Shown here: in pieces, positions 23,124 to 47,224 of the stretch | How positions within the stretch are numbered: the first letter of the stretch is position 1 | Layout of the letters: each line of letters begins with the position of its first letter | Sequence record: NC_049953.1 | DNA: 47,224 nucleotides | Source: Escherichia phage ev099 | Reading direction: 5' to 3' (one strand) | Made by a program: the position numbers and the translations under genes | The notes under the pieces: model-generated | The model's database searches: none | What the model was told of the DNA's origin: nothing | The model's input: only the letters and a program-made list of their open reading frames with translations

Positions 23124-23704
23124 TGGCATTCAGAATGAGTGAACAACCACGGACCATAAAAATTTATAATCTGCTGGCCGGAACTAATGAATTTATTGGT
23201 GAAGGTGACGCATATATTCCGCCTCATACAGGTCTGCCAGCAAACAGTACCGATATTGCACCGCCAGATATTCCGGCTGGCTTTGTGGCTGTTTTCAACA
23301 GTGATGAGGCATCGTGGCATCTCGTTGAAGACCATCGGGGTAAAACGGTTTATGACGTAGCGTCAGGGGACGCGTTATTTATTTCTGAACTCGGTCCGTT
23401 ACCGGAAAATGTTACCTGGTTATCGCCGGAAGGGGAGTTTCAGAAGTGGAACGGCACAGCCTGGGTGAAGGATACGGAAGCAGAAAAACTGTTCCGGATC
23501 CGGGAGGCGGAAGAAACAAAAAACAGCCTGATGCAGGTAGCCAGTGAGCATATTGCGCCACTTCAGGATGCTGTAGATCTGGAAATCGCAACGGAGGAAG
23601 AAATCTCGTTGCTGGAAGCATGGAAGAAGTATCGGGTGTTGCTGAACCGTGTTAATACAACAACTGCACCGGATATTGAATGGCCAGTAGCACCTATAGG
23701 GTAA
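23123..23704 (+). CDS. tfa: tail fiber assembly protein
   Basis: 193 aa [24 protein letters not shown]...; TAATG overlap with stf stop as in lambda. Confidence 0.93.
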
Positions 23705-33058: not shown

Positions 33059-33191
33059 TTTTGGGTACTCCTGGCTGATTAAGTATGTCGATAAGGCGTT
33101 TCCATCCGTCACGTAATTTACGGGTGATTCGTTCAAGTAAAGATTCGGAAGGGCAGCCAGCAACAGGCCACCCTGCAATGGCATATTGCAT
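33051..33191 (-). CDS. cIII: CIII FtsH/HflB inhibitor (46 codons here)
   Basis: [46 protein letters not shown] then TAA. Confidence 0.85.
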   Translation of the reverse strand: MQYAIAGWPVAGCPSESLLERITRKLRDGWKRLIDILNQPGVPKNG

Positions 33192-33263
33192 GGTGTGCTC
33201 CTTATTTATACATAACGAAAAACGCCTCGAGTGAAGCGTTATTGGTATGCGGTAAAGCCGCAC

Positions 33264-45245: not shown

Positions 45246-45276
45246 TTTTTTTGCAAATCACAAAGTCCATTTAATG

Positions 45277-45334
45277 AGCCTCGCGATGCGGGGCTTTTTT
45301 GCAATAAATGCGTACCGCAACGCATGTTTTTTTT
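45277..45334 (+). terminator. tandem rho-independent terminators after the lysis cassette
   Basis: agcctcgc-gat-gcggggct + tttttt, then atgcg-taccgcaa-cgcat + tttttttt. Confidence 0.8.
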
Positions 45335-45449
45335 ACACCGAACCTGCCCCTTTGGAATGGGCCTTTGAGGATACCAGTTAGTGCTGGCGAGCCTCGGTGG
45401 GCTGGTTTCCTGTGCGGCAAAGGTTCATTTCAAATGGTAGGTAAACGTT

Positions 45450-45971
45450 ATGAATATCGTGCCACTTAATTACAAAGGTGAAATTGTCAGTTTCAACACT
45501 GATGGTTGGATCAACGTCACAGGTGTTGCTGAGAGATTTGGGAAACGCATTGATAACTGGATGCGTTTGGCAGAAACGCTTGAATACGTTCGTGCTTTAG
45601 ACGAAGCGTTGACCGGGAAAGAATCTCAAATTTTACATCCCTCACAATCGAGGTATGTAAAAACCAGCAAGGCACGAAAGGACAGGGGTGGTGGTACGTG
45701 GCTACATCCAAAACTTTCAGTTGCATTTGCCCGTTGGTGTGATGCTCGTTTTGCTGTGTGGTGCGACCTGCACATTGATAGTCTGCTTCGCGGTGAACTG
45801 ACTGAGCAGCAGAAATATGAGCAAGCATGTCGCATTCGCGATGACCGGAAATCAAAAGCCAGCAATGGGGCAAGAGAGATGGCTCGCTGGCGATGGGATA
45901 AGCCGGTTATTGAAGCAAATGTTGAGTACTGGCGCGAGCAACTGCAGTTGACTCTCGATATCGCGTGCTGA
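45450..45971 (+). CDS. KilA-N domain protein (at the position of lambda bor)
   Basis: 173 aa; N-terminal IVSFNTDGWINVTGVAERFGKRIDNWMRL...WLHPKLSVAFARWCDARFAVWCD resembles KilA-N/APSES fold. Confidence 0.7.
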   Translation: MNIVPLNYKGEIVSFNTDGWINVTGVAERFGKRIDNWMRLAETLEYVRALDEALTGKESQILHPSQSRYVKTSKARKDRGGGTWLHPKLSVAFARWCDARFAVWCDLHIDSLLRGELTEQQKYEQACRIRDDRKSKASNGAREMARWRWDKPVIEANVEYWREQLQLTLDIAC

Positions 45972-46110
45972 TGGCAAACGCAAAACTGCGTTATCGAAAA
46001 AATCAAAGCATTACTAGAACTGAGCAACGGCTATCCATTACAAAGCCCATCTACGGGTGGGCTTGATAATGGCTTATACCCTGCACGGGATAACTTAACT
46101 GATATCCCTT

Positions 46111-46275
46111 TTAACGGATAAAGGCATTCAAACCTGACACATCATGCGCTGTATCGTCGCCGTATTCCCGTATTAACAGAGACCGTAGCCCGACGGGGAA
46201 CTCCTTCTGCGCGAGTGTGCGGGAATAATCAAAAACGATGCACACCGGGGTTACCGGGTACACATATTTCATCAT
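46111..46275 (-). CDS. possible small ORF (54 aa)
   Basis: MMKYVYPVTPVCIVFDYSRTLAQKEFPVGLRSLLIREYGDDTAHDVSGLNAFIR; below ORF-track cutoff, no RBS verified. Confidence 0.25.
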   Translation of the reverse strand: MMKYVYPVTPVCIVFDYSRTLAQKEFPVGLRSLLIREYGDDTAHDVSGLNAFIR

Positions 46276-46320
46276 GCCAGCGAGTCCGGTTCTGGCACGG
46301 AAGAAACCGGACGTTATGAT

Positions 46321-46731
46321 TTAGTGCGGAAATATTTGTGTAGTGTTCTGAATGTTCTCAGTAAAGAGTAATGAATTATCAAAGGTATAGTAATACCTTT
46401 TGTTTTCGTGGATATTTGTAATCCATCTGAAAACCCCTGCTGTAGCAAGATTTTTCCTGTATTCGTAAAATGATAACTCTCCTGATTTGAATCCTTTTAA
46501 GGTGGCTTCTATAAGGCATTTATTTTTTGAAAATCTTACATTTACAACCTTACCCTGTCCTTTTATTAAAACCGTATTATCGTTTTCAAGAACAAGATGA
46601 ATATTCTCTGTAGCTAAATAGTAAATGTAATGTGAGACATTGTGACGTTTTAGTTCAGAATAAAACCAGTGATAGTTTAAATTATTTCGCACTTTATCGA
46701 ATATTTGTTTAAAAATGGCAACCTGAGCCAT
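46321..46731 (-). CDS. hypothetical protein (YbcV-like, DLP12/lambda right-arm family)
   Basis: 136 aa from [31 protein letters not shown]... Confidence 0.6.
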
Positions 46732-46787
46732 TGTAGTACCTTCCATGTGATATGAGGGGCGTAGTCTGCACGATTATCTAAATTGCT

Positions 46788-47021
46788 TCAATCTGGTCTG
46801 ATCTGTTTTCTGAGCAATTCAGTAATGTCACTCTTTTCTTTGTTTGCTTCAGGAGAAACTCTTTTTTCTGAGCACAGTCTCCGGCGGCAGGCTTCAATGA
46901 CCCAGGCTGAGAAATTCCCGGACCCTTTTTGATCAAGAGCGATGTTAATTTGTTCAATCATTTGGTTAGGAAAGCGGATGTTGCGGATTGTTGTTCTGCG
47001 GGTTCTGTTCTTCGTTGACAT
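46788..47021 (-). CDS. ribbon-helix-helix (Arc/Mnt/CopG-like) DNA-binding protein
   Basis: 77 aa; NIRFPNQMIEQINIALDQKGSGNFSAWVIEACRRRL fits the RHH beta-strand/helix pattern. Confidence 0.55.
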   Translation of the reverse strand: MSTKNRTRRTTIRNIRFPNQMIEQINIALDQKGSGNFSAWVIEACRRRLCSEKRVSPEANKEKSDITELLRKQIRPD

Positions 47022-47164
47022 GAGGTTGTCCCGTATTTAGTGTCGCTGATTTGTATTGTCTGAAGTTGTTTTTACGTTAAGTTGATGCAGATCAATTAAT
47101 ATGATACCTGCGTCATAATTGATTATTTGACGTGGTTTGATGGCGTAGATGCACGTTGTGACAT

Positions 47165-47224
47165 GCAGATGATAATTATTATCATTTTGCGGGTCCTTTC
47201 CGGCGATCCGACAGGTTACGGGGC
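47165..47224 (+). other. cos: right cos region (cosQ side and right half of cosN; window ends 4 nt into the 12-nt cohesive end)
   Basis: ...gggtcctttccggcgatccgacaggttacg followed by gggc matches lambda right end plus first bases of left cohesive end. Confidence 0.8.

Follow-up and report, generated by a model that had tools for sequence, protein, structure and literature searches.

Right-Arm Genes of Lambdoid Phages and Prophages

The right arm of phage lambda carries bor, p78 (a DUF1398 gene), p79 (YbcW) and, at 48109-48303, a 64-aa homologue of YlcI that is unannotated in RefSeq, and DLP12 shows an identical layout (borD-ybcV-ybcW-ylcI). In both, an insertion of approximately 620 bp with ybcW on the other strand lies between the YlcI-type gene and the DUF1398 gene; in lambda this insertion replaces the 3' end of the YlcI-type gene, which leaves a product of 64 aa with a different tail. 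In Escherichia coli K-12, Qin harbors the same two families as ynfO-ydfO, located on the same strand with a spacing of about 57 nt, divergent from a Nu1-like gene and with gnsB following ydfO. Genes of this kind recall the lambdoid morons such as bor and lom, a concept of Hendrix and Juhala. Morons of the bor and lom type reside between functional modules, are AT-rich with respect to their flanks, are variably present, non-essential and oriented opposite to the late operon.

In K-12 the homologues belong to cryptic prophages and are either silent or under regulation. A PdhR site was reported by SELEX-chip inside ynfO and upstream of ybcV, the latter corresponding to the conserved ATCTGGTCTGACC motif located just upstream, and ybcV mRNA was 10-fold lower in a pdhR mutant (PMC7660256). 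Induction of ydfO by more than 100-fold was observed with ionic liquid (PMC4077768), and both ybcV and ybcW increased more than 1000-fold as T4 MotB perturbed H-NS silencing (PMC7827196). In lambda, p78 is non-essential, and its knock-down leaves plating unchanged (PMC10695390). The main text of the cryptic-prophage paper of Wang 2010 does not mention the cluster genes.

Organization of the Right-End Cluster in ev099

The window analyzed here is the whole 47,224-nt stretch of Escherichia phage ev099 (NC_049953.1), a genome of the lambda-like type whose last 1.2 kb recur with 99.9% identity in a prophage of E. coli 55989, O104:H4 and E24377A. A preliminary description placed three minus-strand ORFs at 46788-47021, 46321-46731 and 46111-46275, next to cos. 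All three are present, and two of them (46788-47021 and 46321-46731) are real genes: a YlcI/YnfO-family gene of ribbon-helix-helix (RHH) type and a DUF1398 gene. The gene arrangement of the cluster is a known one and quite ordinary for the lambdoid right arm. It shares with Qin the two families, their order, strand and spacing as well as the divergence from the Nu1-like gene, the RHH-type proteins being 95% and the DUF1398 proteins 76% identical; unlike Qin, it is not followed by gnsB, the middle third of its DUF1398 protein is divergent, and the segment that holds the third ORF has no counterpart there. With lambda and DLP12 it shares homologous genes, the cos-proximal non-coding region and a segment of about 120 bp downstream of DUF1398, whereas it lacks the insertion with ybcW and carries a KilA-N gene in the position where lambda retains bor and its promoter. 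The lambda p78/p79 and DLP12 ybcV/ybcW genes had been proposed as comparators, and this choice was right. The proposal had also held that a toxin-antitoxin (TA)-like or regulatory cassette would fall if these were ordinary lambda right-arm genes lacking toxicity and autoregulation; the comparison with lambda, DLP12 and Qin largely bears this out, in that the two genes are the ordinary right-arm genes of these elements.

The GC content of the DUF1398 gene island is 30–34%, compared to 45–53% in the flanks. Both genes are oriented opposite to the late operon and are therefore not part of the Q-dependent late transcript.

The location next to cos is correct: the window runs up to the right end of lambda (...CCGACAGGTTACG) and continues for four nucleotides into the cohesive end. 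Between positions 47022 and 47220 nearly every base aligns with the final ~200 bp of lambda, up to the terminal GGTTACG, so that the whole cos-proximal non-coding region (47022-47224) is nearly identical to the last 200 bp of that phage. Within it are found the motif GGGTCCT (47193-47199), which in lambda is cosQ, and two inverted repeats, ATCAATTA-N17-TAATTGAT (47091-47123) and ATGATAAT-T-ATTATCAT (47169-47185). The promoter of the RHH-type gene must sit within 47022-47224; no minus-strand promoter in the cluster passed the threshold of the consensus scan, and an Rfam search over 45900-47224 gave no match even at E ≤ 1.

The YlcI/YnfO-Family Gene

The gene at 46788-47021 (minus strand) encodes a 77-aa protein that matches Pfam DUF3950 with 74.7 bits (cut-off 25, E 5e-21), the NCBIfam YlcI/YnfO profile (YlcI_YnfO_N, NF041551) with 35.7 bits (cut-off 30) and phrog_949 with E 9e-33. 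Its core evolves with a dN/dS of 0.06–0.10 with respect to the Stx-phage homologues, that is, under strong purifying selection, so the ORF is a real, constrained gene. Throughout the family residues 1–49 hardly vary, whereas many unrelated forms of the C-terminal tail occur; the predicted RHH core spans residues ~12–53 and the variable tail follows it.

The AF2 model of the protein comprises two helices at residues 19–32 and 37–53 (pLDDT ~86–88) preceded by an extended N-terminal segment. It resembles P22 Arc and Mnt in its small size, in the N-terminal strand motif N-x-R-(F/W/M)-P and in the two predicted helices, and hhalign places it in register with both, with NIRFP over NLRWP of Arc (RNIRFP/FNLRWP, P 0.011) and RNIRFP over FNFRMP of Mnt (P 0.19), although this similarity is not statistically significant; unlike arc and mnt, the gene does not stand in an immI-like divergent promoter arrangement. 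The two best Foldseek matches of the model are the RHH proteins HP0222 and AtaR2, both non-significant at E ~5. No match was obtained in the Pfam RHH families, nor by sequence and profile searches of the PDB. Thus, of the earlier naming as a ribbon-helix-helix protein, what stands is a plausible small RHH-type protein, based on the helices and the Arc register; a firm assignment to the fold is weakly shown, with Foldseek at E ~5 and the Pfam RHH families unmatched. On the model and the alignments it is plausible that the N-terminal ~50 residues form an Arc/Mnt-like ribbon-helix-helix, and the predicted protein is most likely a dimeric, sequence-specific DNA-binding repressor.

The counterpart of the K-12 PdhR site falls inside the 3' part of this gene (46791-46807) and is degenerate here (GGT to GAT); the PdhR consensus finds no match at this place within three mismatches and is not significant in the window.

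The DUF1398 Gene and the Intergenic Spacer

The identification of the second ORF as YbcV-like was well founded. The 136-aa protein encoded at 46321-46731 (minus strand) covers the whole Pfam DUF1398 profile (PF07166, positions 1–119 of 119) with 147 bits (cut-off 22, E 3e-43) and matches the NMR structure of K-12 YdfO (PDB 2HH8) with E 1.4e-69 over residues 1–140; its identity to YdfO, lambda p78 and DLP12 YbcV is about 76%. The gene is under purifying selection (dN/dS 0.2–0.35). Starting from another ATG further upstream (46746) would extend the product to 141 aa, but the start at 46731 is right because a Shine-Dalgarno sequence (GGAAGG, 46739-46744) lies 7 nt before it and the PGAP annotation of E. 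coli 55989 likewise has a product of 136 aa.

DUF1398 is a small family: clustering at 50% identity leaves 189 clusters in a set of 1.84 billion representatives. In an alignment that reaches down to 22% identity, the only invariant residues are L27, T41 and G99, followed by the near-invariant Y35, N43, W103 and Y114. No acidic, basic or histidine residue is conserved in that alignment, which favors a binding protein and disfavors an enzyme; it is most likely that DUF1398 would act by binding a host partner. The AF2 model of the protein is poor (pLDDT 47), and Foldseek with this model found only 2HH8 and gave no fold-based hint of function. Searches of Pfam, NCBIfam, PHROGs and PADLOC returned no toxin or defense family. 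Database proteins in which DUF3950 and DUF1398 seem to be fused (P0014 and P0010) were discarded as read-through artifacts, with a TGA stop translated as W.

The spacer between the two genes (46732-46787, 56 nt, minus strand) contains, in addition to the Shine-Dalgarno sequence, a -10-like GATAAT at 46773-46778 that in the alignment is kept in lambda upstream of p78. This hexamer would be compatible with a promoter for DUF1398 embedded in the 3' end of the RHH-type gene.

Hairpins, the 54-aa ORF and a Conserved Non-Coding Segment

Directly 3' of the DUF1398 stop codon lies a hairpin (GTCCGGTT...AACCGGAC, 46284-46313, minus strand) without a U-tract, with a folding energy of -15.2 kcal/mol (z -1.9), whose stem is conserved and whose loop is variable among relatives. 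Further downstream, at the convergence with the KilA-N gene, a terminator-like hairpin (AAGCCCA...TGGGCTT followed by TGTAAT, 46043-46064, minus strand) is more stable (-22.7 kcal/mol, z -2.8), although it is under the U-tract threshold of the terminator scan; in the E. albertii relative (L087) a different hairpin followed by TTTTGT, a better U-tract, occupies this place. Leftward transcription in ev099 probably stops at the 46043-46064 hairpin.

The possible 54-aa ORF (46111-46275, minus strand) of the preliminary description did not hold up as a gene. It has no family match in Pfam, NCBIfam, PHROGs or PADLOC and is not called by PGAP, and neither YmgL nor YmgK, small proteins encoded downstream of ycgX, resembles it. 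The frame is intact in E. albertii (L087), is cut to 32 codons in a second related locus (L088), and has lost its start in a third (L089); in DLP12 and lambda it carries a frameshift, and Qin lacks it altogether. Where it can be aligned, pN/pS is 0.5–1.4 and the differences are distributed 4/3/4 over the codon positions, without bias. A length of 54 aa is not unusual either, because 37 ORFs of at least 30 aa overlap the 2.7 kb around the cluster. It is a chance ORF rather than a conserved gene and, on this comparative evidence, very probably non-coding.

Most of this ORF falls within a conserved non-coding segment of about 120 bp (46145-46264) that is homologous to the p78-bor intergenic region of lambda, the lambda homology beginning at 46145. 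In HK630 the bor promoter is annotated within the homologous segment; its counterpart here (~46159-46185) is degenerate, bor is absent and the KilA-N gene stands in its stead. The segment behaves as a conserved non-coding boundary element, because it is 89% identical in another prophage (L133) whose neighboring DNA up to cos is otherwise unrelated. Within it lies a long, imperfect inverted repeat in which one pair is compensatory; the folding energy of the segment is no better than that of shuffled sequences (z -0.8 and -1.5), and it has no match in Rfam.

Distribution of the Two Genes

Of 5,426 complete E. coli genomes, 2,092 have the RHH-type and DUF1398 genes in the contiguous layout at a coverage of at least 80%. 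The two genes are nevertheless unequal in number: with 313 phage records matching the cluster region, 152 records carry the RHH-type gene vs. 41 with DUF1398, and the complete E. coli genomes hold 9,549 places with the former vs. 4,310 with the latter. Each is also found alone. In Stx phages the RHH-type gene occurs without DUF1398 between the lysis genes and an HNH-terminase module, from which it is divergent, and in ev243 it is followed by bor, again without DUF1398. Lone DUF1398 genes include K-12 ycgX, copies beside polyketide/aryl-polyene-type genes in Pseudocitrobacter and in a JGI contig, and a copy that occupies the corresponding Nu1-lysis junction of a further E. coli prophage. The C-terminal tail of the RHH-type protein is swapped or hypervariable while DUF1398 stays at least 70% identical. 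As far as their distribution tells, the two genes are independently mobile modules that are often neighbors, since each is also found alone and their counts are uncoupled. On the other hand, an RHH-type gene lies directly upstream and on the same strand in about half of the DUF1398 loci, a frequency that could reflect a regulatory link instead of a mosaic neighborhood. A scan of a contig collection mostly gave lambda DNA in unrelated "genomes" and added little diversity.

Two Accessory Genes or One Functional Unit?

We consider it fairly probable that the cluster consists of two separate moron-type accessory genes of the lambdoid right arm, in a Qin-like layout, which do not form a functional pair. 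The two marks of a moron, deviant base composition and variable presence among related phages, are both found here, and the genes also resemble bor and lom in their position between functional modules, their AT-richness, their dispensability and their orientation opposite to the late operon. Regarding the moron's own promoter and terminator, terminator-like hairpins are present, no promoter reaches the consensus threshold and expression is known from the K-12 homologues. The first gene (YlcI/YnfO) would encode an Arc/Mnt-like small repressor that binds specific DNA sequences as a dimer. The second (DUF1398) would encode a small, soluble, stress-responsive protein from AT-rich DNA that binds a host partner and is not an enzyme; the gene is preceded by a separate ribosome-binding site, and a promoter of its own probably lies within the 3' end of the first gene. 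Expression would take place from the prophage or under stress, outside late lytic transcription, because both genes point against the late operon, and the leftward transcript would probably end at the 46043-46064 hairpin. The p78-bor intergenic segment lost bor as the KilA-N gene took over its place.

An alternative, which we regard as unlikely, is a dedicated regulator-effector operon in which the RHH-type protein represses its own promoter and hence the co-transcribed DUF1398 gene, without any toxicity. The contiguous same-strand layout in the 2,092 E. coli genomes and in Qin and the strong selection on the RHH-type core are what this arrangement would predict; however, the DUF1398 partner is missing for more than half of the RHH-type copies, the DUF1398 genes of lambda and DLP12 are expressed and regulated without an upstream RHH-type gene on the same transcript, and the regions upstream of the two genes have no repeat in common. 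A search for an operator-like repeat common to the upstream regions of the RHH-type, DUF1398 and KilA-N genes gave only matches at chance level.

The same search bears on another explanation, rather improbable in our view, in which antirepressor-type genes (Ant, Rha, KilA-N) in or near the lysis cassette are kept in check by the RHH-type protein, acting as a maintenance repressor like Mnt or Arc, and DUF1398 is unrelated cargo. The alignments in register with Arc and Mnt point in this direction, and so do the neighbors of the gene: within 1–2 kb of it lie an antirepressor-like KilA-N-ORF11CD3 gene in the window, Ant in YYZ-2008, Rha and an antirepressor in Lys8385Vzw, and AntA/B in cf-PICIs (PMC13612085). 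In contrast, lambda, DLP12, Qin and ev243 possess the RHH-type gene without a nearby homologue of the window's KilA-N gene, as do at least 50 of 80 window-type IMG/VR loci (the search covered homologues of this KilA-N gene), and the upstream regions of the RHH-type and KilA-N genes have no operator-like repeat in common. A related and similarly speculative idea, to which we give little credence, is that the YlcI/YnfO protein is an unrecognized, widely conserved prophage-state repressor at the lysis-packaging junction of lambdoid phages with differing packaging modules. Its targets could be the antirepressor-type genes (KilA-N, Ant, Rha) or transcription into the terminase genes, in the manner of P22 Mnt and Arc; the 120-bp segment could be a further cis element, and DUF1398 would be independent cargo.

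The preliminary description had put forward a TA-like or regulatory cassette, on the argument that an upstream RHH gene followed by a larger partner is the usual layout of TA operons. As a type II TA system, the RHH-type protein would be antitoxin and autorepressor and DUF1398 the toxin, which we hold to be very improbable. The likeness to the operons with RHH antitoxins of the CcdA, ParD, AtaR and FitA type lies in the small RHH-type gene upstream of a larger same-strand gene across a 56-nt gap; in addition, HicB-like antitoxins are matched weakly in PHROGs (E 0.029), and the antitoxin AtaR2 is among the best, non-significant Foldseek matches. Unlike those operons, however, the pair is not co-inherited, as the phage and E. 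coli counts given above show, and lone copies of both genes occur; in lambda and DLP12 the two genes are split by ybcW on the opposite strand. The tail of the RHH-type protein, which in RHH antitoxins is the toxin-binding part, is exchanged while DUF1398 keeps its identity, and DUF1398 has neither a match to a toxin or defense family nor conserved catalytic residues. The 56-nt spacer and the separate Shine-Dalgarno sequence of DUF1398 depart from the tight coupling of such operons. Moreover, no toxicity has been reported: YdfO was produced for NMR (2HH8), ybcV, one of twelve candidates expressed in BL21(DE3), was expressed by itself from pACYCDuet, and no toxic effect was noted (PMC7181518), and overexpression of YdfO is cited as protective, increasing oxidative-stress resistance (PMC4077768). 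These expression reports are not decisive on toxicity, because the hosts carry chromosomal ylcI/ynfO copies. Taken on the genomic comparison, the TA reading is not supported, since it fails on co-inheritance, on coupling, on a toxin family or catalytic residues and on a tail that co-varies with its partner.

Finally, a DUF1398 virion protein, as the phrog_413 label ("head protein") and the RefSeq labels of lambda p78 ("head protein" or "putative envelope protein") would have it, can be practically dismissed, since the gene is antisense to the late operon, non-essential in lambda, retained in cryptic prophages and non-phage chromosomal loci and missing from most lambdoid phages with the same head genes, and the protein is soluble according to its NMR structure.

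Concluding Remarks

For lambda specialists the cluster holds no surprise. Its practical value lies in annotation: lists of TA candidates should leave the pair out, gene calling should skip the 54-aa ORF, and the labels "head protein" and "envelope protein" for DUF1398 lack support. Members of both of these uncharacterized families are present in most E. coli genomes as well as in lambda, and the conserved core of the RHH-type protein, together with its fixed place beside the packaging genes, makes it a reasonable small target for wet-lab work.

Artefacts in the record and in the databases

The left end of the record does not start with phage DNA. Positions 1-33 are TCGTCGGCAGCGTCAGATGTGTATAAGAGACAG, which we take to be the Illumina Nextera read-1 transposase adapter, and the phage DNA that follows matches lambda from about 40 nt inside cos, as compared with PhiR49_1; NC_049953.1 is therefore contaminated with adapter sequence, and the first ~40 nt past cos are missing from it.

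Database searches with the right end are affected by a different problem. Lambda right-end DNA was recovered at 100% protein identity from dozens of unrelated bacterial "genomes" (loci L094-L122, genome contig matches) with hosts that include Pseudomonas, Flavobacterium, Cohnella, Kitasatospora and an Arcanobacterium "plasmid", and it frequently made up contigs of ~3.5 kb. The nanopore control strand is a lambda amplicon of ~3.6 kb. Control or spike-in lambda DNA is the most likely source of these matches and would also account for the frameshifted p78/YlcI variants in many ENA contigs of ~3.5 kb. Two protein entries (P0014 and P0010) that combine DUF3950 and DUF1398 domains were rejected as true fusions because the TGA stop of the ribbon-helix-helix (RHH) gene is read there as tryptophan (...RPDWSNLD...); they are artefacts that arise when genes are called under a code in which TGA is a sense codon.

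Annotation of the lambda right end and DUF1398 outside phages

A 64-aa YlcI/YnfO homologue adjoins cos on the minus strand of lambda (NC_001416, 48109-48303, corresponding to 2742-2936 of the lambda locus L001) and is unannotated in the RefSeq lambda record. The DUF1398 protein p78 is named "head protein" or "envelope protein" in RefSeq and PHROG, labels that have no visible support. Distant DUF1398 homologues (27-31% identity) were found in Pseudocitrobacter and in a JGI contig (loci L131, L132 and L135), where DUF1398 is a single gene immediately 3' of a ketoacyl-synthase/ApeP-like/ACPS gene cluster and no phage genes surround it.

Regulatory and non-coding elements

A PdhR site was reported in K-12 by SELEX-chip in ynfO and upstream of ybcV (PMC7660256). 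Its counterpart by homology lies at 46791-46807, in the 3' end of the RHH gene, with the left half-site altered from GGT to GAT and a consensus match that is not above chance. The non-coding segment at 46145-46264 (120 bp) contains a long imperfect inverted repeat and is 87-89% conserved in lambda, in DLP12 and at an otherwise unrelated prophage junction (L133); its counterpart in lambda overlaps the bor promoter. Elsewhere in the window, Rfam gives matches to an IS009 RNA (23466-23664, plus strand, 229 bits) and to the lambda cIII thermoregulator (33146-33204, minus strand, 88.5 bits).

A KilA-N gene in the place of bor

The position held by bor in lambda is taken in the window by a plus-strand gene (45450-45971) encoding a protein with KilA-N and ORF11CD3 domains (Pfam KilA-N, E 8e-22; phrog_129 and phrog_518). 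Terminator-like hairpins with T-runs lie upstream of it, directly 3' of Rz (45267-45335), one detected by a scan at 45308-45325 and another, GAGCCTCGCGATGCGGGGCTTTTTTT, recognized by eye at about 45267-45300. Its product is antirepressor- or Rha-like. Among 80 IMG/VR loci that are otherwise identical, only about 24 carry the gene.
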